The notes: generated from the sequence alone by a model not told the origin. A DNA stretch of 64,000 bases from an uncultured bacterium (GCA_964434115.1 CAYSSX010000006.1:140106-204105), one strand, 5' to 3'. Shown: positions 5,684 through 43,789, counted from the stretch's first letter. A program made the numbers and translations.

Positions 5684-6127
5684 ATGAAAAAAAATACGGA
5701 GGTTCCCTTGAAAGCCATCTTCCTTTTTCTTTCCCTGACTTTTTTGATCCTGACTGGAACGGCACAGGCTGATGAGGGAACCATTTCCGATCCGTCTGCC
5801 CCTGAAGCTTCTGATTTCAATCAATGGGAAAACGAGTTCAAGTCTTCGCTGGACGATTTGAGTAAACCGGGTTCGACGCCTCCTGCGTCCTCAGGGACTG
5901 CTGTTGCCAATGTCCCCGCGGCTTCTATTTTGAAGAAAGCGCCTAAACCGCAAGCCCCGCTTCCGGAGCAGCCCCTGCCTTCTCCGGATGTTGAAACTGT
6001 GGATGGGAATACTCGCGTAGACCGGGTTGAAAGCCGGGTCGCCCAGCTTGAGCGGAGCCTCCGGTTGATGGAGGAACGTCTTCGAATGCTCGACAGGGAA
6101 GTGGATGATTTGAAACGCCGCCGTTAA
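5684..6127 (+). CDS. hypothetical secreted protein with a C-terminal coiled coil
   Basis: An internal Met in ORF 5564..6127 precedes a signal peptide (MKKNTEVPLKAIFLFLSLTFLILTGTAQA). A Ser/Pro-rich middle is followed by RVESRVAQLERSLRLMEERLRMLDREVDDLKRRR. The upstream part of the listed ORF overlaps xerD out of frame. Confidence 0.45.
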   Translation: MKKNTEVPLKAIFLFLSLTFLILTGTAQADEGTISDPSAPEASDFNQWENEFKSSLDDLSKPGSTPPASSGTAVANVPAASILKKAPKPQAPLPEQPLPSPDVETVDGNTRVDRVESRVAQLERSLRLMEERLRMLDREVDDLKRRR

Positions 6128-6141
6128 GTCCACGGCATCAA

Positions 6142-6170
6142 TTGACATAACCCGTCACCTTCGCTATACT
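6142..6170 (+). promoter_or_regulatory. consensus sigma70-type promoter (TTGACA-17-TATACT)
   Basis: TTGACA at 6142-6147, an exact 17-nt spacer, and TATACT at 6165-6170. It sits about 80 nt upstream of the tRNA-like gene and about 200 nt upstream of purB. Confidence 0.5.
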
Positions 6171-6249
6171 CCGCTCGTCTTTGCCGCATCTGCGGTTCTA
6201 AACTTTTCCGCTTCCAACTCAACCATTCGTGGGACTCGATACGCATCAT

Positions 6250-6324
6250 GGCGCTATCGTCTAGCCCGATCTAGGACGTTGCCCTCTCAAGGCAAAAACA
6301 CGGGTTTAAATCCCGTTAGCGCTA
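6250..6324 (+). tRNA. tRNA-Glu(CUC)-like gene with an atypical T-loop (TTTAAAT) and no encoded CCA
   Basis: A manual cloverleaf fits: acceptor GGCGCTA/TAGCGCT (7 bp, G1-U72 wobble), U8, D-stem GTCT/GGAC, anticodon stem TTGCC/GGCAA with loop CTCTCAA (anticodon CTC), and T-stem ACGGG/CCCGT. T56 replaces the conserved C56. Confidence 0.5.
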
Positions 6325-6367
6325 TGCGATAGACTGCGGCGTGGTTGAACCCAGAATCAGGATTGGT

Positions 6368-7711
6368 ATGATTTCGCGGTATACACGGCCCGAAATGGGC
6401 GCATTGTGGACTGAACACACCAAGGTCGCCAAGTGGCTCGAGGTTGAACTCGCTGCTTTGGACGCACTTGCAAAGTATCGCTATATCCCCAGAGATATCC
6501 CTGCCAAGGTCCGTAAAAAGGCCAACTTCAACCTGGAACGCATCCAGGAAATCGAAAAAGTCGTTAACCACGATGTGATTGCTTTTCTTACCAACCTTGC
6601 GGAGTACGTTGGTCCGGCAGGCCGGTACGTGCATTTTGGGCTTACTTCTTCGGATATCCTCGATACAGGCCTTGCACTTCAAATAAAAGAAGCCTCAAAG
6701 CTGATCCGAAAAGAAATTGTGACGCTGATTGATATCCTCCGCGAAAAAGCCGATGAGCACCGCCATACAGTGATGGCCGGACGAAGCCATGGGGTCCATG
6801 CAGAACCAACGACCTTTGGCCTTAAAATGGCGCTCTTTTATCAGGAGTTTCAGCGGAATCTCCGCCGTTTTGATGCGGCTTCGGAAAATGTGGAATACGG
6901 TAAAATTTCAGGAGCCGTGGGAACCTTTGCCAATGTGGACCCTAAGGTAGAAGAAGATGTTTGCCGCCGCCTGGGACTTAAACCAGCGCCGATTTCTACC
7001 CAGATTGTCCAGCGTGACCGCCATGCGGAGTATCTCAATACGATTGCCTTGCTAGGCTGCTCGCTTGAAAAATTGGCCACGGAAATACGGGGACTTCAGA
7101 AAACAGAAACCCTTGAAGTTCAGGAGCATTTCGGAAAAGGACAAAAAGGTTCTTCCGCGATGCCGCACAAGCGGAATCCGATCACGTGTGAGCGTATTGC
7201 CGGCCTTTCCCGCATCCTTCGCGGAAATGCGCTTGCCGGGATGGAAAACGTGGCGCTTTGGCATGAACGCGATATTACCCATTCCTCCGTGGAACGCGTG
7301 ATTTTTCCGGACAGCACGATTCTTGTTCATTATATGCTGACGCTTATGCAGGGAGTGATCCGCGACCTCTTGGTGCTTAAAGACAATATGCTGAACAATT
7401 TGGAAAAGAGCCGCGGGGTTGTTTTTTCCCAAGGACTTCTCCTCAAACTTGTTGAAAAAGGGCTGACGCGCGAAGCCGCTTATGCCTTGGTTCAAGAAGC
7501 CGCCAAGAGAGTGTGGGACGAAGGTGTTGTGTCCCTCCGTGAAGCGGTTGTCAATGACCGCGACATTTTAAAGCATCTGAGCCGCAAGGAAGCCGAAAGT
7601 GTTTTTGATTACGCCTACCACCTTAAAAACGTGAATAAGATTTTTGATCGTGTTGGGATTCCGGCCAAAAAACAGCAGGTCAAAAAGAAAAAAACAATGG
7701 CCAAGGCGTAA
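6368..7711 (+). CDS. purB: adenylosuccinate lyase PurB
   Basis: The N-terminus MISRYTRPEM (internal Met of the listed ORF), the fumarate-lyase signature GSSAMPHKRNP and a C-terminal PurB domain are present. The protein ends with a short Lys-rich tail. Confidence 0.95.
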   Translation: MISRYTRPEMGALWTEHTKVAKWLEVELAALDALAKYRYIPRDIPAKVRKKANFNLERIQEIEKVVNHDVIAFLTNLAEYVGPAGRYVHFGLTSSDILDTGLALQIKEASKLIRKEIVTLIDILREKADEHRHTVMAGRSHGVHAEPTTFGLKMALFYQEFQRNLRRFDAASENVEYGKISGAVGTFANVDPKVEEDVCRRLGLKPAPISTQIVQRDRHAEYLNTIALLGCSLEKLATEIRGLQKTETLEVQEHFGKGQKGSSAMPHKRNPITCERIAGLSRILRGNALAGMENVALWHERDITHSSVERVIFPDSTILVHYMLTLMQGVIRDLLVLKDNMLNNLEKSRGVVFSQGLLLKLVEKGLTREAAYALVQEAAKRVWDEGVVSLREAVVNDRDILKHLSRKEAESVFDYAYHLKNVNKIFDRVGIPAKKQQVKKKKTMAKA

Positions 7712-7737: not shown

Positions 7738-8652
7738 ATGGGAGTTTCCATGACAACACCGGATGCGATTCTTGAAACCAAACTTCCACTGCCTCTTTTG
7801 GGCCGCGGAAAAGTCCGAGATATTTATGACATGCCAGGCGACCGGCTTTTGATTGTTTCCACGGACCGCCTGAGTGCTTTTGATGTGGTCCTTCCGAATC
7901 CCATTCCATTTAAGGGACGCGTGCTGACCCAGCTTTCCGTGTTCTGGCTGAAAAAATTTGAAAGCTGGATGCCGCATCATTTGATTACGGCGGATATCCG
8001 TGAGATGGGGCTTCCGGAGAATGTGCTCCGCGAGCATGGCGCTGTTCTGGAAGGCCGCAGCATGCTGGTCAAGAAGGCCAAGCCGCTTCCCATTGAATGC
8101 GTGGTTCGCGGTTATGTGACGGGTTCCGGCTGGAAAGATTATTTAAAGACAGGCGCGATCTGCGGCCACAAACTTCCTGAAGGGCTTAAACAATGCGAAA
8201 AGCTGAAAACGCCCATTTTTACTCCGGCTACAAAGGAATCCACGGGACATGACATCAACATCAGCGTTGAACAGGCAACGCAGCTGATCGGTTCTGATCT
8301 CGCAAAAAAAGCCGAACAGATGACCATTGAGCTTTATGAGAAAGGCCGTGATTTTGCCGATACCTGCGGCATTTTGATTGCGGATACCAAATTTGAATTC
8401 GGAGTTTATAAAGGGGAATTGATTCTGATCGATGAAGTGCTGACGCCGGACAGCTCACGTTTCTGGCCCAAAGACAATTATGAGGCCGGTCATGATCAGC
8501 CCAGTTATGACAAGCAGATTGTGCGCAACTATCTTTTGGACATCCGCTGGAACCAGAATCCCCCGGGACCGGAACTGCCGCCGGATGTTGTCCAGAAAAC
8601 TTCACAGGCCTACCGCGACGTCTATAAGCGTTTGTCGGGCCGGGAACTTTAA
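7738..8652 (+). CDS. purC: phosphoribosylaminoimidazole-succinocarboxamide synthase PurC
   Basis: SAICAR synthetase motifs GKVRDIY, LLIVSTDRLSAFD and ILIADTKFEFG are present. Confidence 0.95.
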   Translation: MGVSMTTPDAILETKLPLPLLGRGKVRDIYDMPGDRLLIVSTDRLSAFDVVLPNPIPFKGRVLTQLSVFWLKKFESWMPHHLITADIREMGLPENVLREHGAVLEGRSMLVKKAKPLPIECVVRGYVTGSGWKDYLKTGAICGHKLPEGLKQCEKLKTPIFTPATKESTGHDINISVEQATQLIGSDLAKKAEQMTIELYEKGRDFADTCGILIADTKFEFGVYKGELILIDEVLTPDSSRFWPKDNYEAGHDQPSYDKQIVRNYLLDIRWNQNPPGPELPPDVVQKTSQAYRDVYKRLSGREL

Positions 8653-8663
8653 AAGGGGACGCA

Positions 8664-8924
8664 ATGTATAAAGCCACGATTAATGTGACGCTTAAGAAGT
8701 CAGTGCTTGATCCTCAGGGGCAGACCGTTCTCCATGCGCTTTCGACACTCGGCTTTAAAGAAGCCCGGGATCTTCGCGTCGGCAAATTCTTTGAGTTGAC
8801 CGTAGACGAAGCGGACAAAACCCGTGCGGAAGCCAGGATCCGGGAAATGTGCGACAAGCTTTTAATTAACCCCGTCATCGAAGAATACTCCCTGACGCTC
8901 CGGGAAGAAAAAGCGGCCCGCTAA
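8664..8924 (+). CDS. purS: FGAM synthase PurS subunit
   Basis: An 86-aa protein beginning [22 protein letters not shown], typical PurS, lying immediately before purQ. Confidence 0.9.
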
Positions 8925-9616
8925 TGAGCAGCATGAAAGCCGCAGTGATTGTTTTTCCGGGATCAAACTGCGATACGGATTGCTTCAATGTCCTCAAAGA
9001 TGTCATGCGTATGGATGTTTCTTATGTATGGCACAAAGAAAAGACCCTTCCCAAAGTTGACCTTGTGATTCTGCCCGGCGGATTCAGTTACGGGGACTAC
9101 CTTCGAACAGGGGCGGTGGCCCGGTTTTCTCCGGCCATGGACGCGGTGATTAAGCACGCCAATGAAGGACGTCTCGTGCTCGGTATTTGCAACGGCTTTC
9201 AGATTCTCCTCGAATCAGGACTGCTTCCCGGCGCGATGCTTCGGAATGCCTCCATGAGTTTTGTCTGTGAACATGTGTGGCTTCGAGTCGAAGACAACAG
9301 CAGTGTTTTTACCCGAAGCCTGAAAAAAGGGGAAACGATCTGCGTTCCGATCGCCCATGGGGAAGGGAATTATTTTTGCGATGATGATACTTTGAAAAAG
9401 CTTCAGGATCAGTCGCAGGTTGCCTTCCGCTATTCTTCGAAAGAGGGCAAGACGACGCCGGAGTTTAACCCCAATGGATCAAGAGACAACATCGCAGGCA
9501 TTTTTAATGCAAAGCGCAATGTTCTTGGGATGATGCCTCACCCGGAGCGCGCCAGTGAACCGGTGCTTGGCTTTGAACAGGGCCGGAAGATTTTTGAAAG
9601 CCTTGTGGGAGCTTAG
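8924..9616 (+). CDS. purQ: FGAM synthase glutamine amidotransferase subunit PurQ
   Basis: A class-I GATase with LGICNGFQ (catalytic Cys) and a C-terminal HPER. TAATG overlap with purS. Confidence 0.95.
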
Positions 9617-9622
9617 GCCGCT

Positions 9623-11860
9623 ATGACTACGGAGACTCAAATTAAAATTACACCGGAAATGATTGCCGCGCATGGAATCACCGAGGCCGAGTACCAGCGT
9701 ATTGTGAAAATCCTGGGCCGTGATCCCAACTTCACAGAACTCGGTATTTTCAGCGTCATGTGGAGCGAACACTGCTCTTATAAAAACTCCAAACCGATTT
9801 TAAAAACTTTCCCGACCGAAGGACCGAATCTTCTGGTTCGAGCGGGCGAAGAAAACGCCGGCATTGTGGATATCGGAGACGGCCTCGCCATCTGTTTCAA
9901 AATTGAAAGTCATAATCATCCCTCAGCCATTGAGCCTTTTCAGGGGGCGGCGACAGGGGTTGGCGGCATTCTCCGGGATATTTTTACCATGGGGTCGCGT
10001 CCGATTCTGCTGATGAACTCTCTGCGGTTTGGGAATCTCGATGCCCCTGTGACCAAGCGCCTCTTCCGAGGCGTTGTAGCCGGAATCGCCCATTATGGTA
10101 ACTGTATTGGTGTTCCGACGATTGGCGGAGAAGTCTATTTTGACGAATGTTATGAAGGCAATCCGCTTGTGAACGCCATGGCGCTTGGCATTATGAAAAC
10201 CAATGAAATTGTGAAGGGCAAGGCCTCCGGTGTGGGGAATCCTGTTTATTACGTAGGTGCCTCTACAGGCCGTGACGGATTAGGCGGAGCCGCTTTTGCG
10301 TCTAAGGAATTGACCGAGGAAAGCCATGAAGACCGCCCGGCTGTTCAAGTCGGAGATCCGTTCATGGAAAAACTTCTGATGGAAGCCTGCCTTGAACTCA
10401 TGAAGACCGATGCCTTGATCGGGATGCAGGACATGGGCGCCGCAGGGCTGACCTGCTCGACCTGCGAAACCGCGGCCCGCGGTTCCACGGGAATTGAAAT
10501 TGACCTTCAAAAAGTTCCGCTTCGTGAAAGCGGCATGATTCCTTATGAAATCATGCTGTCTGAATCCCAGGAACGTATGCTGATCATCGCTCAGAAAGGC
10601 AAAGAACGTAAGGTCGAAGAAATTTTTGAGAAATGGGATCTTCATGCCGTGAAAATCGGCGAAGTCAAAGACGGCCACTTGATGCGCGTGAAAAGCGGCA
10701 ATGAAGTGGTCGCTGAAATTCCGGCCAAGGCCCTTGCCGATGAAGGCCCTATTTATATCCGCGAGGAAAAACGTCCTGCTTACTTGGATGAAGCGCAGTC
10801 TTTTGACAGCAAGAGCGTCAAGATCCCCGCAGATTTTAATGCGGTTTTGAAAAAGCTTTTGGATCATCCGTCTCTCGCCTCCAAGGCCTGGGTTTGGAAA
10901 CAGTACGATCACATGGTGCGGACAGACACGGTTTTTTATCCAGGGCATGATGCGGCGTTGATTCGTATCAAAGGAACCAAAAAGGGCATCGCCGTTTCAA
11001 CCGACTGCAACAGCCTCTACTGTTATCTGGATCCTTTTGAAGGGGGCAAAATTGCGGTGGCGGAATCTTCCCGTAATGTCGTCTGCTCCGGCGCGCGTCC
11101 GCTTGCGATTACAAATTGTCTTAATTTCGGCAATCCCATGAAACCTGAAATTTTCTGGCAATTCCATCAGGCAGTCAACGGCATGATCGCCGCCTGTAAA
11201 GCGCTTGGAACACCTGTGACCGGCGGAAATGTCAGTCTCTATAATGAAAGCCCGACGGCAGCGATTTATCCGACCCCGACCGTAGGAATGGTGGGTCTTA
11301 TGGAAGATATTGAGAAGCGCGTTCCTTCTTTCTTTCAAAGTGAAGGAGATCTGGTGTTTCTTGCAGGGGATACTCTTGAAGAAATCGGCGGCACCTATTA
11401 TCTGATGATTGAGCATGGTTTGAAGAAGGGACTGCCTCCTCGTCTGGATCTTGAAAAGGAAACACGTCTTCAAAAATTTATTATTGGAATGGCGGAAACC
11501 GGACGTCTGGCGTCCTGCCACGATTTGTCCGAGGGCGGTCTTGCTCTTGCCGCCGCGGAAGCCTGTTTTGATCCTAACAGCCCCAAGGGTGTTGTGATTG
11601 ATCAGCTTGACCTGTCTGTCCGGGGGAAGATACGGGAAGACGCGCTTTATTTTGGAGAAACACAGTCGCGCGCACTCATGACTGTAAAGCCGGAGTATAA
11701 AGAAGATATTTTGAAGAGGGCCGTTGAAGCGAATGTTCCTCTTTACCAAATCGGCTGTGTCAGCGGACAGGAAATTGTGATTGGTGATAGAATAAAGCTC
11801 CCAGTCGTGGAAGCTTCCAAGATTTTTCAATCGGCTATTCCCAAAAGAATGGCCAGATAG
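9623..11860 (+). CDS. purL: FGAM synthase II large subunit PurL
   Basis: A 745-aa AIRS-fold tandem domain protein ([20 protein letters not shown]) in the pur-operon position. Confidence 0.95.
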
Positions 11861-11866
11861 GGGATT

Positions 11867-13276
11867 ATGGGCGGAGAAAACGTTAAAGACCATTGCGGTG
11901 TATTCGGGATTTTTAATCATCCCGAAGCTGCCCGTATGACGTACCTTGGTCTTTTTGCCCTTCAGCATCGCGGCGAGGAAGCGGCCGGTATTTGTTCAAG
12001 CGATGGCGCAACCCTGCACCTGGAAAAAGGTATGGGGTTGGTTGGCGAAGTTTTTGATGAGCCCCGTATCTCCCGGCTTGTCGGCAGCAACGCCATCGGA
12101 CACACGCGTTATTCGACAACGGGTTCTTCCAGCCTTGTGAATGCCCAGCCCTACAAAGTGGATTATTCCCGGGGCCAGGTGGCCATTGCACACAACGGAA
12201 ATCTTGTCAATGCGCAGGTGCTGCGCGCGGAGCTTGAAGCCTACGGTTCTATCTTCGGCAGCACCACGGATTCTGAAATTTTTATTCACCTCATGGCAAA
12301 ACCCACTTACCGCTCCACTGAAGAGTCTGTCGTGGATTCGATCAAAAGAGTGGAAGGCGCCTTCAGTGTGGTGATGCTGAATGAGCATCAGCTTTTTGCC
12401 GTGCGCGATCCGCATGGTTTTCGTCCTTTATGCCTCGGAAAACTCGGGGCAGGTTATGTCGTGGCTTCAGAAACCTGTGCTTTTGATTTGACGGGTGCTG
12501 ATTTTGTCCGGGAAGTTAACCCGGGTGAAGTCCTGGTGATCGATGCCAAAGGGTTGAGAAGCTACTACCCTTTTGAGGATCAGAATAAGCCCAAGGCCCA
12601 TTGTATTTTTGAACACGTTTATTTTGCCCGGCCTGACTCCATGGTCTTCGGGGATAACGTGGCGGTAACGCGCGAACGCATGGGGAGAAATCTTGCCAAG
12701 GAACACCCGGCCGATGCGGATCTTGTGATCCCGGTTCCGGACTCCGGAAATTTTGCCGCGGCTGGATACGCGCGTGAGTCGGGTATTCCGCTCGGCCACG
12801 GTTTTACGCGTAACCACTATATTGGAAGAACTTTTATCAGCCCGACCGAGTCTGCACGGGCCATTAAAGTCAAAATTAAGCTCAATCCGATCCGCGAGAT
12901 GATTGAAGGAAAGCGGGTCGTGGTGGTGGACGATTCCATTGTGCGCGGCAATACGGCCCGCTCGCGTGTCGCCCTTTTGAGAAGGGCCGGTGCGAAAGAA
13001 GTGCATATGCGTATCAGCTGCCCTCCGCATATTTCCCCATGTTATTACGGGATTGATTTTCCTTCCAAAGCCGAGCTTTTGGCCTGTAATATGAATATGG
13101 AAGAAATCAAAAAATATCTGGATGTGGACAGTCTTGGTTATTTGAGTGTGGAAGGCATGCTGGCTTCCGCGAGCCGCGAGAAATCGGATTATTGTGCGGC
13201 CTGTTTTACCGGTAAATACCCGACGACGATTTTCGATGAAGTCGATAAGCTGAAACTCGAAAAGAAACGCTGCTAA
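11867..13276 (+). CDS. purF: amidophosphoribosyltransferase PurF with an N-terminal propeptide
   Basis: An Ntn-type CGVFGIF follows a 10-residue propeptide (MGGENVKDHC). The PRTase motif VVVVDDSIVRGNT is present, and a C-terminal Cys cluster (CPPHISPCYYG...CAAC) suggests an Fe-S-type PurF. Confidence 0.95.
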   Translation: MGGENVKDHCGVFGIFNHPEAARMTYLGLFALQHRGEEAAGICSSDGATLHLEKGMGLVGEVFDEPRISRLVGSNAIGHTRYSTTGSSSLVNAQPYKVDYSRGQVAIAHNGNLVNAQVLRAELEAYGSIFGSTTDSEIFIHLMAKPTYRSTEESVVDSIKRVEGAFSVVMLNEHQLFAVRDPHGFRPLCLGKLGAGYVVASETCAFDLTGADFVREVNPGEVLVIDAKGLRSYYPFEDQNKPKAHCIFEHVYFARPDSMVFGDNVAVTRERMGRNLAKEHPADADLVIPVPDSGNFAAAGYARESGIPLGHGFTRNHYIGRTFISPTESARAIKVKIKLNPIREMIEGKRVVVVDDSIVRGNTARSRVALLRRAGAKEVHMRISCPPHISPCYYGIDFPSKAELLACNMNMEEIKKYLDVDSLGYLSVEGMLASASREKSDYCAACFTGKYPTTIFDEVDKLKLEKKRC

Positions 13277-13305
13277 ACCCTCCCCCCAGAGACTTAGAAG
13301 GTTGA

Positions 13306-14355
13306 ATGATGACAGCCTTGACGTATGAAAAGGCAGGGGTTCCCCATTTAAAAGGGGATCCCGGCTATAACCGCAAAATTGCTTCTCTCATCCGCTCGAC
13401 ACGTGTTCCTGGAGTGATGGGCAGTGCCCTTGGTTTCGCGGCCCTCTTTGACCCCAAAATGACAGGCATCCGGGATCCTCTTCTGGTGGCCTCAACGGAC
13501 GGTGTTGGCACCAAGCTTGAAGTTGCCGGACTCCAGGATAAGCATGACACTATTGGACTCGATCTGGTCGCGATGTGCGTCAATGATCTCATTACCTGCG
13601 GCGGGCAGCCCGTGTTTTTCCTCGATTATTTTGCGACAGGCCGTTTCGAACCTAAGGTCACGGAACAGGTTTTAAAAGGGATCGTCCTCGGCTGCCGAGA
13701 AGCGGGCTGTGCGTTGATTGGCGGCGAAACCGCGATCATGCCGGGATTTTACGCGGTGCATGAACAGGGTGCTTCTCAGTATGATGTTGCGGGGTTCAGC
13801 GTCGGTGTCGTGGACCGCAAAAAAATGGTGACAGGGGAATCCATTCGAGCCGGGGATGTTCTTTTGGGGCTGGCCTCAACGGGTTTTCACTCTAACGGGT
13901 ACTCGCTTCTCCGGAAAGTTTTTTCTCAGGACCAATTGAGAGGCACTATCGGAAAAGAGCTTTTGATTCCAACACGCATTTATGTGAAGCCGGTTCTGAG
14001 TGTGCTGAAAGCTGTCAAGCTGCGGGGCATTGTCAATATTACCGGAGGCGGTTTCCCGGACAATTTACCCCGCGTGATCCCGGAAGGCCTTGGCGCTGTC
14101 ATTGATGCCGGCAGCTGGCCCAGGGCAAAGCTGTTTCAAACTGTGCAGGATTCTGGTAACATACCCCCTCTTGAAATGTTCCGCACGTTTAACATGGGTA
14201 TCGGAATGGTGCTCGTGATGCGGAAGCAGGACGTTGGAGCAAGTCAGACTATTCTGAAAAAATTCAAAATCCCGTCCTGGATCATCGGAGAGATTGCAAA
14301 AACCGGTAAGCGGGAATCCCGCGTCCGGATTTTCTCCGGCGGCCGGCCGGTTTGA
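13306..14355 (+). CDS. purM: phosphoribosylformylglycinamidine cyclo-ligase PurM
   Basis: AIR synthetase motifs LLVASTDGVGTK and ITGGGFPDNLPR are present. Confidence 0.95.
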   Translation: MMTALTYEKAGVPHLKGDPGYNRKIASLIRSTRVPGVMGSALGFAALFDPKMTGIRDPLLVASTDGVGTKLEVAGLQDKHDTIGLDLVAMCVNDLITCGGQPVFFLDYFATGRFEPKVTEQVLKGIVLGCREAGCALIGGETAIMPGFYAVHEQGASQYDVAGFSVGVVDRKKMVTGESIRAGDVLLGLASTGFHSNGYSLLRKVFSQDQLRGTIGKELLIPTRIYVKPVLSVLKAVKLRGIVNITGGGFPDNLPRVIPEGLGAVIDAGSWPRAKLFQTVQDSGNIPPLEMFRTFNMGIGMVLVMRKQDVGASQTILKKFKIPSWIIGEIAKTGKRESRVRIFSGGRPV

Positions 14356-14381
14356 CGAATCGTTTTTCCGGAGGTTGTTCC

Positions 14382-15662
14382 ATGAAAGTATTGTTGTTAG
14401 GCTCAGGCGGAAGAGAACATGTTCTTGCCTGGAAAATCTCCCAAAGCCCTCTTTTAAAAAAACTCTACGTGGCTCCCGGCAATGCTGGAATTTGTGACAT
14501 TGCCGAGTGTGTTCCTATCCCCGCGACAGATCTTGATGCCCTTGTCGCTTTTGCCAAAAAAGAATCGATCGATTTGACCATCGCAGGTCCTGAAGCCCCG
14601 CTTGTGGAGGGGATCTGGGACCGTTTTAACGCGGAAGGTCTTAAACTCTTTGGGCCCTCTCGCGAGGCCGCTCAGCTTGAAGGCAGCAAGGCTTTTTCCA
14701 AAGATATGATGCATAAGTTCGGCATCCCGACCGCTCATTACGAAGTTTTCTCAAATGTGAACGAAGCCAAACATTATGCGGTCGAAGCAGATATGCCGGT
14801 GGTGATCAAGGCAGACGGCTTGGCTGCAGGGAAAGGCGTGGTCATCTGTAAATCATCCCAGGAAGCCGTTGAAACTTTGACCCACATGATGAGTGACGGG
14901 GCTTTTGGGGATGCCGGTAAAAAAGTCATCATCGAAGAACTGCTGGAAGGGGAAGAACTTTCCATCCTGGCTTTAACCGATGGAGAATCCGTTATTCCTC
15001 TGGCAAGCTCTCAAGACCATAAGCGTGTTTATGACCACGACCGAGGACCTAATACCGGCGGCATGGGGGCTTACTCACCTTGTCCGCAGATCAGCAAAGA
15101 AAAATTTCTCGAGATTGTGGACATTAGTGTGACCCCTATGGTTCGTGGCATGGCGGCGGAAGGGAAACCTTATCGCGGGCTTCTTTATGCCGGAATCATG
15201 ATGACGGAGAAAGGACCTTATGTCCTTGAATATAACTGCCGCTTTGGCGACCCGGAAGCCCAGGCCGTTATTCCGCGTCTCAAATCTGACCTTCTTGCCG
15301 TGATGCTTGAGATTGCCGAAGGCAAACTTAAAACAAAATGTCTCGAGTGGACTGACAAGGCTTCACTTGCCGTGGTCATTTCTTCAGGAGGGTATCCAGG
15401 AGCGTTTGAAAAAGGCCATGTTGTGACAGGCCTGGAATCCTGCAAGGATACTCCTGATGTGAATGTCTTTCACGCGGGAACAGAAAAAAACACTCAGGGA
15501 CAAATTGTTAATTCCGGGGGGCGTGTTTTTACCGTCGTAGCTCTTGGTGAAACGCTCCGGGACGCGCATGACAAAGCGTATCACACGGTTGGAAAAATTC
15601 ATTTCGATGGACGGCATTTCCGCCGAGATATCGGTAAGCGTGCTTTGGAGGTGTTGAGATGA
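14382..15662 (+). CDS. purD: phosphoribosylamine-glycine ligase PurD
   Basis: An internal Met (MKVLLLGSGGREH) with a GGAGG Shine-Dalgarno 8 nt upstream. ATP-grasp GARS domain. Confidence 0.95.
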   Translation: MKVLLLGSGGREHVLAWKISQSPLLKKLYVAPGNAGICDIAECVPIPATDLDALVAFAKKESIDLTIAGPEAPLVEGIWDRFNAEGLKLFGPSREAAQLEGSKAFSKDMMHKFGIPTAHYEVFSNVNEAKHYAVEADMPVVIKADGLAAGKGVVICKSSQEAVETLTHMMSDGAFGDAGKKVIIEELLEGEELSILALTDGESVIPLASSQDHKRVYDHDRGPNTGGMGAYSPCPQISKEKFLEIVDISVTPMVRGMAAEGKPYRGLLYAGIMMTEKGPYVLEYNCRFGDPEAQAVIPRLKSDLLAVMLEIAEGKLKTKCLEWTDKASLAVVISSGGYPGAFEKGHVVTGLESCKDTPDVNVFHAGTEKNTQGQIVNSGGRVFTVVALGETLRDAHDKAYHTVGKIHFDGRHFRRDIGKRALEVLR

Positions 15663-16168
15663 GTTTGCCAAGAGTAGCCATTCTCATGGGAAGCGATTCG
15701 GATTTTGAAGTGATGACAGAGACTGTCGATGCGCTGAAAGAATTTTCCATCCCCTGCGAAGTTCATGCCCTGTCCGCGCACCGCACGCCTCATGAAGTTG
15801 CGGAATTTTCTTCGAAAGCAGAATCGCGGGGCATTGAGGTTTTTGTTTGTGGCGCAGGAGGCGCGGCCCATTTAGCTGGTGTTGTGGCCGCCCATACGAC
15901 GCTTCCTGTGATCGGTGTCCCCATCAATGCGACCTCGCTGGGCGGGTTTGACGCGCTCCTGTCCACGGTTCAAATGCCTCCGGGGATTCCTGTGGCAACG
16001 GTCGCTGTCGGGAAATTTGGAGCCCGGAATGCAGGCATTCTGGCTGTGCAAATATTAGCCCGGGGGGATGCCTCGCTTCGCCCCAAACTTGCCCAGTTCA
16101 AAAAGACGATGGCTGAAAAGGTTAAGGAAAAAGACCGCAAACTGCAGGAAAAGCTCAGCGGAAAATGA
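15659..16168 (+). CDS. purE: N5-carboxyaminoimidazole ribonucleotide mutase PurE
   Basis: PurE motifs VAILMGSDSD, GAGGAAHL and PVIGVP are present. ATGA overlap with purD. Confidence 0.9.
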   Translation: MSLPRVAILMGSDSDFEVMTETVDALKEFSIPCEVHALSAHRTPHEVAEFSSKAESRGIEVFVCGAGGAAHLAGVVAAHTTLPVIGVPINATSLGGFDALLSTVQMPPGIPVATVAVGKFGARNAGILAVQILARGDASLRPKLAQFKKTMAEKVKEKDRKLQEKLSGK

Positions 16169-17226
16169 ATTCCATGATGATTGTGAAGATGAATCCCCGC
16201 GATCCTGACTTGGCGCGTTTGCGTGAAATTGCCAAGGCGAGCCGGGAGGGGAAGATTGTTGGGTTTCCCACAGAAACTGTTTATGGAATGGGCGCGCCGA
16301 TGAGTCAGCGGGGCCTTTCTGAAAAGCTTGCAGAGATTAAGAAACGAAAGGACGGAAAACCGTTCTCTTATCATATTGGGGCATGGGAAATGCTTGAACA
16401 TCTGCAGATAAACCCGAGCCCCATTTTTCGTTTCTTGACCCGGAAGTTCTGGCCAGGGCCATTAACCCTGGTGACAGTCAATCGAAGCGGTCAGCAATTA
16501 GGCATCCGATACCCGAAAAACCTGCTCGCGTCAGCGCTTATTAACTCTGTTGGAGAGCCTTTTATCGCAACGAGTGCAAATCTTAGCGGAACACAATCAC
16601 CGAAATCTGCTCAGGAAATTCCCGCTGAGGTTCAGGGACAGATTGATTACCTTATTGACGCGGGAGTTTGCGAGTTTGGGCAAGACTCCACTATTGTTGA
16701 TTTGACGGACGAAAAAGCCCCTGCCGTCGTGCGTGCGGGGGCCCTAGCCGAGGAAGTTAAAGCGGCCGTTGAAAAAGTGCGGGCAGGAAAATTCCCGCGC
16801 CGGAAAATTCTGATCGTCTGCACGGGCAATTCCTGCCGTTCTCCGATGGCGGAAGGCTGGCTTAAAGACGAACTGGACCGCCGTGGTCTTTCGGATGAAA
16901 TTGAAGTGTCTTCATGCGGCGTCGGAACCCGTGATGGCATGCCCGCGACACCGGAAGCGGTTTATGTGATGAAGAATCGTGAAATTGATATTTCAGAACA
17001 CCGCTCGCAGCAGTGCACGCGGGAAGACATTCTGAGTGCGGATTTGATTCTGGCCATGAGCCAGCAGCATTATATGTTCATTACAAGCATGATGCCGGGT
17101 GCCCGGGAAAAAATAAAAGTATTGAATGTCATCGATCCTATCGGTATGAGTATGTCTGTATATGAAGATGTGATGAATGTTATCGAAAAGAAAATGCAGT
17201 CCTTGTGGTTTGATATCGTAGGCTGA
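16165..17226 (+). CDS. fusion protein: L-threonylcarbamoyladenylate synthase (Sua5/YrdC/YwlC family) plus low-molecular-weight protein phosphatase (YwlE/LMW-PTP family)
   Basis: The N-terminal ~200 aa form a YrdC fold (FPTETVYGMG...FWPGPLTLV...TSANLSG...STIVD). The C-terminal ~150 aa are an LMW-PTP with the P-loop CTGNSCRSPMAEG and a DP loop. Confidence 0.85.
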   Translation: MNSMMIVKMNPRDPDLARLREIAKASREGKIVGFPTETVYGMGAPMSQRGLSEKLAEIKKRKDGKPFSYHIGAWEMLEHLQINPSPIFRFLTRKFWPGPLTLVTVNRSGQQLGIRYPKNLLASALINSVGEPFIATSANLSGTQSPKSAQEIPAEVQGQIDYLIDAGVCEFGQDSTIVDLTDEKAPAVVRAGALAEEVKAAVEKVRAGKFPRRKILIVCTGNSCRSPMAEGWLKDELDRRGLSDEIEVSSCGVGTRDGMPATPEAVYVMKNREIDISEHRSQQCTREDILSADLILAMSQQHYMFITSMMPGAREKIKVLNVIDPIGMSMSVYEDVMNVIEKKMQSLWFDIVG

Positions 17227-17239
17227 GAAAGAGGATAAA

Positions 17240-17689
17240 ATGGCGTTAAAAGTTGCTTTGGCAGGGGATCATCGCGGCGTTGAGATGAAATCCCGCCTTA
17301 TTCGCTTTCTTGAAGCGAAGGGGTATGAGACCGTTGATTGTGGTCCGAACTCTCTGGAATCCTGCGATTATCCGGATTACATGTTTCCTGCAGCAGAAAA
17401 GGTTGCGCAGGGGGATTGCTTTCGCGCCATCGGAATATGCCACAGCGGTATAGGGAGTTCTATTGCGGCCAATAAGGTCAAAGGGGTGCGGGCGGCTCTT
17501 TGCAAGAGCATTGAAGAGGCAAAACTTTCCCGGGCTCATAATGATGCCAATATGCTGATCTTGGGAGCCGGCTTTCTGGATGAGAAAATTTTAGAAACGC
17601 TTGTCGAAACCTGGTTAAACACCCCCTTCGAGGGGGGGAGGCATGAGAACCGTGTTAACAAAATCAAAGCCTATGAAGGAAGCCACTGA
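17240..17689 (+). CDS. rpiB: ribose-5-phosphate isomerase B
   Basis: RpiB/LacAB-family motifs ([15 protein letters not shown]; catalytic Cys-His region) in a 149-aa protein. Confidence 0.9.
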
Positions 17690-17690
17690 A

Positions 17691-18950
17691 ATGCGTTCCT
17701 ATCTTCAAGATCGGGATCCGGAAATTTATGACGCGGTACGCCACGAGGTGATCCGTCAAAATGAAAATATCGAGCTCATTGCGAGTGAAAACTTCACATC
17801 GCTTGCCGTCATGGAAGCTGCGGGAACTCTGCTGACAAATAAGTATGCGGAAGGTTATCCCGCCAAACGCTGGTACGGCGGCTGCGAAAATGTGGATGTG
17901 GTGGAAACTCTGGCGATCGAACGTGCCAAGGCACTGTTCGGCGCGGATCACGCGAATGTTCAGCCGCACTCCGGAACATCGGCCAACATTGCTGTTTTTA
18001 TGGCGCTCCTTCAGCATGGCGACAAGATTCTCGCCATGGATCTTTCACACGGCGGGCATCTCTCCCATGGTCACAAGATGAATTTTTCTGGGAAGTATTT
18101 TGAAATTATTTCCTATGGCGTGAGTCAAAAAGATGAGCGTATTGATTATGATCAGCTGGAAAAGCTGGCGCTTGAACATAAACCCAAAATGATTCTTCTT
18201 GGGGCTTCTGCGTACCCCCGGATTATTGATTTTAAAAGAGGGCGCGAGATCGCGGATAAAATCGGCGCCCTTTTGATGGCGGATATCGCGCATTTTGCCG
18301 GATTGGTTGTTTCGGGGCATCACCCGAGTCCGATACCTTATTGTGATGTCGTAACCACGACTACGCACAAAACCCTTCGCGGCCCCCGTTCGGGTCTCAT
18401 TATGTGTAAAGAAGCTTATGCCAAGGCCATTGACTCCGCGGTTTTCCCGGGGACTCAGGGCGGTCCTCTGATGCATATTATTGCGGCCAAGGCCGTCGCT
18501 TTTAAAGAGGCACTGCAGCCGGATTTCAAAGCTTATGGCGAGCAGATTGTTAAGAATGCAAAAGCTCTCGCGGAGGCTGTTGTGGGGCGGGGGTACCGTC
18601 TGGTTTCCGGCGGGACCGATAACCATCTGATGCTTGTGGATGTGACGGTAAAGGGGATGAACGGTAAGGATACCCAGGATCTTCTGGATCGCGTCAAAAT
18701 TACCGTGAACAAGAACATGATTCCTTTTGATACGGCATCACCCTTTAAAGGGTCGGGCATTCGTCTTGGAACACCGGCTGTTACGACACGCGGAATGAAA
18801 GAAAATGAGATGCGCGAGATTGCCTGTCTTATTGACGATGCGATTGTCTCCCGCGCCGACGAATCGAAATTGGCCTCGGTCCGCAGCCGTGTCGAAGCGC
18901 TGACCAAAAAATTCCCGCTTTATCCGGAGCTTTTGGAGAAGTATCGTTAA
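17691..18950 (+). CDS. glyA: serine hydroxymethyltransferase GlyA
   Basis: Begins at the internal Met [16 protein letters not shown] directly after the rpiB stop. SHMT motifs [10 protein letters not shown] and the PLP-lysine region [12 protein letters not shown] are present. Confidence 0.95.
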
Positions 18951-18953
18951 TTT

Positions 18954-19406
18954 ATGCGCTGCCCATTCTGCAAAGCTGAAAACGATAAAGTCATTGATTC
19001 ACGAACGGCGAACGAAGGGACCGTGATCCGCCGCCGCCGTGAGTGCGAGGACTGCACGCGCCGCTATACGACTTATGAAAGGATTGAAGAAATCCCGCTG
19101 CATGTGGTTAAAAAGGACGGCCGCCGTGAACCTTATGACAGGGCCAAGGCCTTAGACGGAATTTACAAGGCCTGCGGAAAAAGGCCCATTGCTTTGGCCG
19201 ACCAGGATCTGATCGTGGATGAGCTTGAGAAGTTTCTCCGCGACAAGTACGACAAAGAGGTCCCCTCCTCGATTCTTGGGGAATTTATCATGAAACGCCT
19301 GGGCAAGCTTGATCAGGTTGCTTATGTCCGTTTTGCCAGCGTTTACCGGGAATTTCAGGATGTCAGCCACTTCATGAAAGAGCTGAAATCCCTTCTCGTT
19401 AAATAA
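18954..19406 (+). CDS. nrdR: transcriptional repressor NrdR
   Basis: MRCPFCKAENDKVIDSR...CEDCTRRYTTYE zinc ribbon plus an ATP-cone. Confidence 0.95.
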   Translation: MRCPFCKAENDKVIDSRTANEGTVIRRRRECEDCTRRYTTYERIEEIPLHVVKKDGRREPYDRAKALDGIYKACGKRPIALADQDLIVDELEKFLRDKYDKEVPSSILGEFIMKRLGKLDQVAYVRFASVYREFQDVSHFMKELKSLLVK

Positions 19407-43709: not shown

Positions 43710-43789
43710 AGAAGGGACAAATGGAGAAATGCGAGAGGCGGTAGTATAGGTGTAAAAAAAGAAGATGGCAAGGCGGGATAGCCGTGCTT

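Follow-up and report, generated by a model that had tools for sequence, protein, structure and literature searches.

A tRNA-Glu(CUC) gene with a non-standard elbow pair probably leads the purine operon of Candidatus Omnitrophota

Why does a tRNA-like gene stand directly in front of a purine biosynthesis operon? The question is raised by a 64,000-nucleotide stretch of DNA from an uncultured bacterium (hereafter, the window), in which a promoter of near-consensus sequence is followed by a cloverleaf with a CUC anticodon and then by purB (Table 1). The initial annotation of this locus offered two readings, an unusual tRNA that is co-transcribed with the purine genes or a tRNA-like regulatory element that takes the place of a riboswitch or PurR box. 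Our comparison of related sequences supports the first of these and argues against the second. We propose that the de novo purine operon is transcribed as part of a unit whose first gene encodes a working elongator tRNA-Glu(CUC), a reading to which we give a probability of roughly 70%.

Table 1. Coordinates of the promoter, tRNA gene and purine genes, counted from the first nucleotide of the window.
Feature	Position	Strand	Details
Sigma-70-type promoter	6142–6170	+	−35 TTGACA 6142–6147, 17-nt spacer, −10 TATACT 6165–6170
Pre-tRNA 5′ leader	6171–6249	+	79 nt after the −10 hexamer
Leader hairpin GCCGC-AUCU-GCGGU	6183–6196	+	
Pyrimidine-rich stretch TTTTCCGCTTCCAAC	6204–6218	+	In the leader
tRNA-Glu(CUC) gene	6250–6324	+	75 nt; ARAGORN and Rfam RF00005
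Anticodon CUC of tRNA-Glu	6286–6288	+	
T loop TTTAAAT of tRNA-Glu	6305–6311	+	U56 at 6307
tRNA–purB spacer	6325–6367	+	43 nt; Shine-Dalgarno AGGA 6359–6362
purB (adenylosuccinate lyase)	6368–7711	+	TIGR00928, E = 4e-164; first protein gene of the proposed unit
purC, purS, purQ, purL, purF, purM, purD, purE, tsaC, rpiB, glyA, nrdR	7738–19406	+	NCBIfam and Pfam

A scan for PurB, limited to one genome per species, retrieved 80 loci, of which the 50 closest belong to Candidatus Omnitrophota (PurB 62–98% identical). All 46 Omnitrophota loci with sufficient upstream DNA have, according to ARAGORN, a same-strand tRNA-Glu(CUC) just 5′ of purB; the four loci without a tRNA call have at most 106 nt of upstream DNA each. 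A tRNA-Glu upstream of purB was absent in the 10 loci from other phyla (L050–L059). Across the phylum the gene order is ligA, a XerC/D-type recombinase, a variable stretch, tRNA-Glu and purBCSQLF. The median gap from the tRNA to the purB ATG is 42 nt, which leaves no room for purB to have a promoter of its own; 31 of the 47 gaps do not exceed 50 nt, and the tightest measure only 13–18 nt. Fifteen gaps measure at least 60 nt, and 13 of these lack any promoter-like site that matches at least 9 of the 12 consensus positions. The exceptions are L039, with a promoter-like site 274 nt 5′ of the purB ATG in a gap of 411 nt, and L048, the only locus in which the tRNA lies 1.1 kb from purB.

The promoter in the window was found where the initial annotation had placed it, some 80 nt 5′ of the tRNA: it matches the consensus at 11 of 12 positions, the top match between 6000 and 22000, and the tRNA begins 79 nt after the end of the −10 hexamer. 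Shuffled sequence yields about 0.7 such promoter-like sites per 1.4 kb. Related loci carry TTGAC[AG]-17-TATACT/TAGAAT 5′ of the tRNA in 35 of the 45 cases with upstream DNA, at distances from the tRNA that range from 51 to more than 220 nt, and both hexamers together with the CTTCGC that precedes the −10 are identical in L001, L002, L159 and L085. The discriminator that follows the −10 hexamer, CCGCTCG, is G+C-rich, and the predicted transcription start lies near 6177. A G+C-rich discriminator is in keeping with a promoter for stable RNA that is controlled by growth rate or the stringent response, and such control therefore probably applies here. We dropped a boxA-like reading of GTCTTT after the −10, as the motif lies on the predicted start site itself. 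The promoter of another tRNA in the window, tRNA-Arg(UCU) at 43710–43770 on the minus strand, is TTGCCA-17-TATACT and shares its −10 with the tRNA-Glu promoter; the pyrimidine-rich leader of tRNA-Arg(UCU) contains CCTCTCGCA, a motif that also occurs in the tRNA-Glu leaders of relatives.

Downstream of the tRNA, the genes from purB to nrdR either overlap or are separated by gaps of 0–29 nt, and no terminator-like sites were found in the intergenic gaps of the pur operon. The alignment of the PurB N terminus, MISRYTRPEM, starts at residue 1 in all related loci. Plus-strand terminator-like sites were also absent from 6324–6368 in a simple pattern scan, by which weak signals could be missed; this agrees with the earlier remark that no terminator is visible in the 43 nt before purB. 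As there is no terminator after the tRNA and no room for a second promoter, the tRNA and the pur operon are likely to be co-transcribed, as judged from sequence. Synteny alone could also keep the tRNA beside purB without a shared transcript. As a side observation, the product of window 16165–17226 joins a tsaC/Sua5-type threonylcarbamoyl-AMP synthase (residues 12–200) to an LMW-PTP/ArsC-like domain (residues 213–346).

The most serious alternative is that the locus consists of two units, with a tRNA that is transcribed from the promoter at 6142–6170 and mostly terminated, and a purB whose own start signal lies within the tRNA gene or immediately 3′ of it. The E. coli metY operon, which has an internal promoter and terminators after its tRNA, is a precedent for this (PMC6511841). 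Some relatives may also fit it: a T run stands directly 3′ of the tRNA in L013 and L028, where it could end part of the transcription, and hairpin-rich inserts or a GIY-YIG gene separate the tRNA from purB in some others. In the window itself, a promoter-like site at 6345–6372 (TTGAAC-16-(TG)TATGAT) matches 9 of 12 positions. The −10 hexamer of this site covers the purB ATG, however, so that a transcript from it would lack the purB start codon, and L002 has not kept the site; we rejected it as a purB promoter on both grounds. A terminator or a credible purB promoter within 6324–6368 would have favoured two units, and simple consensus scans, which could overlook weak signals, found neither. The gaps of 13–50 nt in 31 loci leave a promoter no space, and among the 15 longer gaps only those of L039 and L048 hold a candidate. 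We therefore regard two separate units as unlikely.

The tRNA-like element itself has the features of a glutamate tRNA. ARAGORN called tRNA-Glu(CUC) at 6249–6325, and Rfam RF00005 matched 6250–6324 at 58.3 bits (gathering score 29), spanning model positions 1–71 of 71 with no non-standard pairs flagged. In the Rfam register, which we use for numbering, the acceptor is closed by G1-U72 and the discriminator is A73. The 7-nt anticodon loop, CUCUCAA, keeps U33 and A37, and the CUC anticodon is invariant in 28 of 28 aligned homologues. The D arm (UCGUCUAG...AGGAC) is of the Glu type, its U13-G22 pair is invariant in the alignment and the variable loop has 4 nt; we take U13-G22 in the D stem and a 4-nt variable loop to be marks of tRNA-Glu. 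The discriminator is followed by TGC, so the gene does not encode CCA, whereas those of the other two tRNAs of the window, tRNA-Pro and tRNA-Arg, both do. Among 47 tRNA-Glu homologues, 23 have an encoded CCA. The 75-nt cloverleaf, the CTC anticodon, the missing CCA and the TTTAAAT T loop with U56 were thus all present as the initial annotation had described them, and the tRNA search that it proposed returned a real tRNA rather than a pseudogene.

The T loop is not the only unusual part of this tRNA. The D loop, AGCCCGAUCUA, has G18-A19 where G18-G19 is standard, a change that was missed when the T loop alone was called atypical. A19 (6269) lies opposite U56 and the two replace G19-C56, while G18 and U55 are kept; as A19 matches U56, U56 is not a lone defect. 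Among the 25 distinct sequences of our alignment the 19–56 pair is AU in 13 and GC in 12, with no mismatches, so that the T-loop variant is shared by related genomes and always comes with A19. We also scanned metagenome contigs with a Glu-type D-arm pattern in which A19 was fixed and the T loop was left free. This gave 102 matches, 77 of which are tRNAs of the A19 type, and all 77 have U56 (TTTAAAT in 76 and TTTGAAT in 1). Three of the other matches are tRNA-like with the pattern in a different register, and the remainder have no T arm where one is expected. Other tRNAs in all the loci retrieved have C56 in 40 of 44 cases. These 19–56 counts are of sequences, not of independent events, and one ancestral double change may be the source of all A19-U56 sequences. 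By its sequence, the substituted pair is Watson–Crick and still purine–pyrimidine, so the L-shape of the tRNA should persist and the geometry of the elbow is probably kept. According to a review, all three domains of life conserve G19-C56 (PMC7912444), and the term A19-U56 did not occur in the literature that we searched.

We next consider conservation of the whole molecule, using 28 aligned homologues (25 distinct sequences) in which the cloverleaf pairs and the tertiary pair 19–56 were counted. Standard pairing was found in 99.8% of stem cells, compared with 31–53% of cells in slid controls, and 12 of 22 pairs showed double-sided, compensatory changes. The observed covariation score was reached by 0 of 500 shuffles. 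The tRNA is identical at 75 of 75 positions between the window and L002, the PurB proteins of which are 88% identical, whereas the flanks diverge. GAG makes up 30% of the Glu codons in the window (19.5 per 1000 codons), which means that a tRNA-Glu(CUC) has work to do. These data point to a genuine, structurally constrained glutamate tRNA gene, the product of which is unusual but, we predict, working: it should be charged and used by the ribosome. With respect to a standard bacterial tRNA-Glu, it shares the cloverleaf, the Glu-type D arm with U13-G22, the 4-nt variable loop, G18 and U55, and departs from the standard G19-C56 and the usual G1-C72. As a separate observation, the acceptor closure (window 6250/6323; alignment columns 1/74) is G1-U72 in 22 of the 25 distinct Omnitrophota tRNA-Glu(CUC) sequences and G1-C72 in 3.

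Could the element instead be a cis-acting regulator or processing signal of the pur operon, tRNA-like but uncharged, that replaces a riboswitch or PurR box? It occupies the position where pur leaders usually occur, it lacks the encoded CCA of the window's other tRNAs and it has a non-standard elbow pair and G1-U72. No known purine-sensing element was found at the locus. An Rfam search of 5900–6600 at E ≤ 10 returned no family besides tRNA, in keeping with the earlier statement that a guanine riboswitch is absent; a search of the window and 11 related loci at the gathering score also returned tRNA only, with no purine riboswitch, ZTP, PRPP or T-box, and no PurR-like element was found at the locus. 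Beyond its position 5′ of a pur operon, the element has no structure or sequence in common with purine riboswitch, PurR box or T-box leaders. Against a regulatory role, however, the cloverleaf stems, U33, A37, the Glu-type D arm and the short variable loop are all kept, the anticodon never varies, nearly half of the homologues do encode CCA, and the GAG codons require a reader. The compensated elbow pair is what would be expected if the L-shape matters. Non-translational tRNAs, such as those of the cell-wall tRNA-Gly type, have lost D-loop/T-loop interaction bases without compensation; we met no such uncompensated loss here, as a change at position 56 was always matched at position 19. Excision of a tRNA would process the mRNA in any case, and the position needs no extra function. 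Full elongator features and no sign of purine sensing make this part of the initial annotation very improbable.

A decaying pseudogene, or a chance cloverleaf beside a chance promoter match, could be argued from U56, the missing CCA and an Rfam score of 58 bits, compared with 69–72 for tRNA-Pro and tRNA-Arg of the window, but it is effectively refuted by the identity with L002 amid diverging flanks, by phylum-wide conservation with compensatory changes and by the similar scores (57–65 bits) of homologues with a standard G19-C56.

If a tRNA gene does head the purine transcription unit, its expression can be sketched from sequence, conservation and general tRNA maturation. RNA polymerase would start near 6177 at the conserved promoter and transcribe, in order, a 73-nt leader, the tRNA, the 43-nt spacer, purB and the later genes. 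RNase P would cut at G1 of tRNA-Glu. As CCA is not encoded, we propose that an RNase Z-type enzyme cuts after A73 and that the CCA-adding enzyme then completes the 3′ end. The 3′ endonuclease cut would release a purB mRNA with a 43-nt 5′ UTR that contains the Shine-Dalgarno sequence, so that the spacer would serve the pre-tRNA as its 3′ trailer and purB as its 5′ UTR. Purine synthesis would then track a stable-RNA type of promoter and not a purine-sensing leader. We rejected a leader–trailer processing stem as a general feature of these loci. The minimum-energy fold of 6170–6375 does pair CAACCA.. with ..UGGUUG, but its z-score of −1.3 is not significant, the mean z in a leader–trailer duplex test over 45 loci was +0.17 and no locus fell below −2, and the distal helix is absent from the close relative L159. 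A short CGCAU/AUGCG helix beside the tRNA is possible in the window's own clade.

Both the tRNA and the operon type are of known kinds; what is new is their fusion across a phylum and the natural A19-U56 elbow. Among known arrangements, the E. coli metY-rimP-nusA-infB operon comes closest: it is a protein operon led by a tRNA gene, and RNases excise the tRNA from a long transcript (PMC6511841). Like metY, the Omnitrophota tRNA-Glu is at the 5′ end of a polycistronic unit with the promoter upstream of the tRNA, and it lies on the same strand directly 5′ of protein genes. The two differ in several respects. In metY, an internal promoter, P2, and terminators follow the tRNA, whereas the 43-nt spacer here holds neither signal; the partners of metY are translation factors, whereas those of tRNA-Glu are enzymes of purine synthesis; and metY is dispensable and varies between strains, whereas the tRNA-Glu–pur arrangement is kept across the phylum. 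In the E. coli thrU-tyrU-glyT-thrT-tufB operon and in mitochondrial tRNA punctuation, tRNAs and mRNA also share one precursor, in which RNase P and a 3′ endonuclease define the mRNA ends by cutting where the tRNAs begin and end. In those systems the partners of the tRNAs are translation genes or an entire organelle genome, and here the partner is a purine operon. We know of no other tRNA-led purine operon. The same isoacceptor occurs in tRNA-Gln(CUG)–tRNA-Glu(CUC) operons: in bacteria, tRNA-Glu(CUC) is an auxiliary tRNA that is often gained or lost and is usually paired with tRNA-Gln(CUG) (PMC4041420). Unlike these auxiliary pairs, the Omnitrophota tRNA-Glu(CUC) is solitary, fixed at one locus throughout the phylum and joined to protein genes.

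The elbow change has a parallel in plastids. A point mutant in the T loop of Euglena gracilis chloroplast tRNA-Glu keeps its function in translation but is no longer recognized by glutamyl-tRNA reductase (PMC5654406). The Euglena variant is a laboratory mutant, whereas the A19-U56 variant is natural and found across a phylum. Stange-Thomann et al. (1994) reportedly found that the mutation uncouples protein synthesis from the C5 tetrapyrrole pathway; the change is said to be C56 to U, made in the laboratory with G19 left unchanged. Both cases involve tRNA-Glu, the T loop and, if the change is as reported, position 56, and in the Omnitrophota tRNA the partner base 19 has changed too. By analogy, one idea is that a tRNA-Glu with U56 would be a poor substrate for tetrapyrrole synthesis. 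Some Omnitrophota, but not all, have heme synthesis (PMC10066038). A bolder reading, which we consider quite unlikely, is that A19-U56 and G1-U72 shield the tRNA from a reader of standard shape, such as glutamyl-tRNA reductase, and that the fusion with the pur genes is a control device. If so, the cell would have a Glu-tRNA reserved for translation, as in the Euglena mutant, and the stable-RNA promoter together with the tRNA maturation cuts would set purine synthesis; in many relatives, a leader hairpin and U tract would act as an attenuator or small RNA as well.

The locus matters in three ways. An uncultured phylum appears, from sequence, to have a de novo purine operon without a leader of its own, which would rely on the promoter of a tRNA and on its excision; the phylum's purine supply would then be tied to stable-RNA synthesis and not to purine sensing. 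G19-C56 is among the most conserved tertiary pairs of tRNA, and its natural exchange for A19-U56 has been retained in many species. The elbow is a contact surface for RNase P, the ribosome and T-loop modifying enzymes, which makes A19-U56 tRNAs ready test substrates for these contacts. There is also a caution for annotation, in that U56 or an absent CCA is no ground for labelling such tRNAs as pseudogenes.

The leader between promoter and tRNA is partly conserved among close relatives. The stem of the hairpin at 6183–6196 is kept in L001, L002 and L159 while its loop varies, and a G-U pair becomes A-U in L002. A pyrimidine-rich motif of the leader is likewise retained in the window's own clade. 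GATACGCATCAT lies directly 5′ of tRNA-Glu, and TTTCCGCTT is common to the leaders of L001, L002 and L085.

In distant Omnitrophota, we observed that this leader contains a conserved element, about 80 nt long, which falls into two groups. The first comprises L016, L018, L020, L021, L035, L038, L046 and L047 (for example, L020:5807–5889). Its arms are C-rich on the 5′ side and G-rich on the 3′ side (CCCACC/GGUGGG, CCUUCC/GGAAGG and GCCCU/AGGGC) with some compensatory changes, and the C-rich/G-rich helix encloses an inner hairpin with a GUUA motif, with GUGUUU coming next; a U tract follows the helix. The second comprises L022, L024, L026, L027, L031, L032, L037 and L049 (for example, L032:5765–5846); its sequence is conserved, and RNAalifold gave no consensus structure for it. 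The element had no Rfam match, and in the 0.9 Mb searched no copy was found beyond the tRNA-Glu locus. In these relatives it might act as an attenuator, as a small RNA or as a processing signal. The window leader showed no significant similarity to these conserved leaders by nhmmer, and profiles of both groups matched tRNA-Glu leaders only, the window not among them; we therefore dropped the element as a feature of the window. In L030, L031, L044, L049 and L060, units of about 90 nt also recur in the stretch that separates the leader from the tRNA (for example, L049:2830–3109). These units have the form GGCGCCTGATTT...GGATACATCAG; they start with GGCGC, like the 5′ end of the tRNA, and finish with the ATCAG that precedes the tRNA. 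Duplication of GCCCTTGTCTTAATT in L030 suggests that a small mobile element may have inserted into the leader.

Insertions also occur on the other side of the tRNA. In L022 (979–1374), a small GIY-YIG nuclease gene (92 amino acids, Pfam E = 3e-20) is inserted exactly after A73 of the tRNA, and its stop codon overlaps the purB ATG. The insertion is also present in L018, L030, L033 and L039, and L025, L044 and L049 carry scars of it. Ahead of the gene lie about 110 nt that contain a GC hairpin and a long-range repeat, TGGTTCG...CGAACCA. None of the loci with the gene or a scar has an encoded CCA. In the window, the spacer sequence TGGTTGAACCC (6342–6352), which is kept in L001 and L002 and missing from L159, resembles joined ends of the insert and might, speculatively, be such a scar.

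Other tRNAs with A19 were also observed. At L132:3087–3161, a gene with a Glu-type D arm, A19 and the T loop TTTGAAT has the anticodon UUA (tRNA-Stop in ARAGORN) and adjoins a tRNA-Ile(UAU); judged by its anticodon, it is a possible UAA suppressor. A tRNA-Glu(UUC) with the A19-U56 elbow lies in dense arrays of 6–12 tRNA genes in L091, L168, L177 and L179 and is also found in L110 and L178; in the arrays it is accompanied by a second tRNA-Glu, a tRNA-Glu(CUC) of the ordinary type. A phage origin of these arrays was not supported, as the D-arm pattern gave 0 hits in a viral contig collection. A second lineage of A19-U56 tRNA-Glu(CUC), with the acceptor sequence GGCCYCA, occurs in A+T-rich DNA in L081 (3700–4010, minus strand), L102, L147 and others. 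Members of this lineage are not beside purB but 3′ of a murF-like gene, which we identified by eye from its C-terminal sequence, and the last 17 nt of the tRNA recur about 170 nt downstream, resembling an integration-site repeat.
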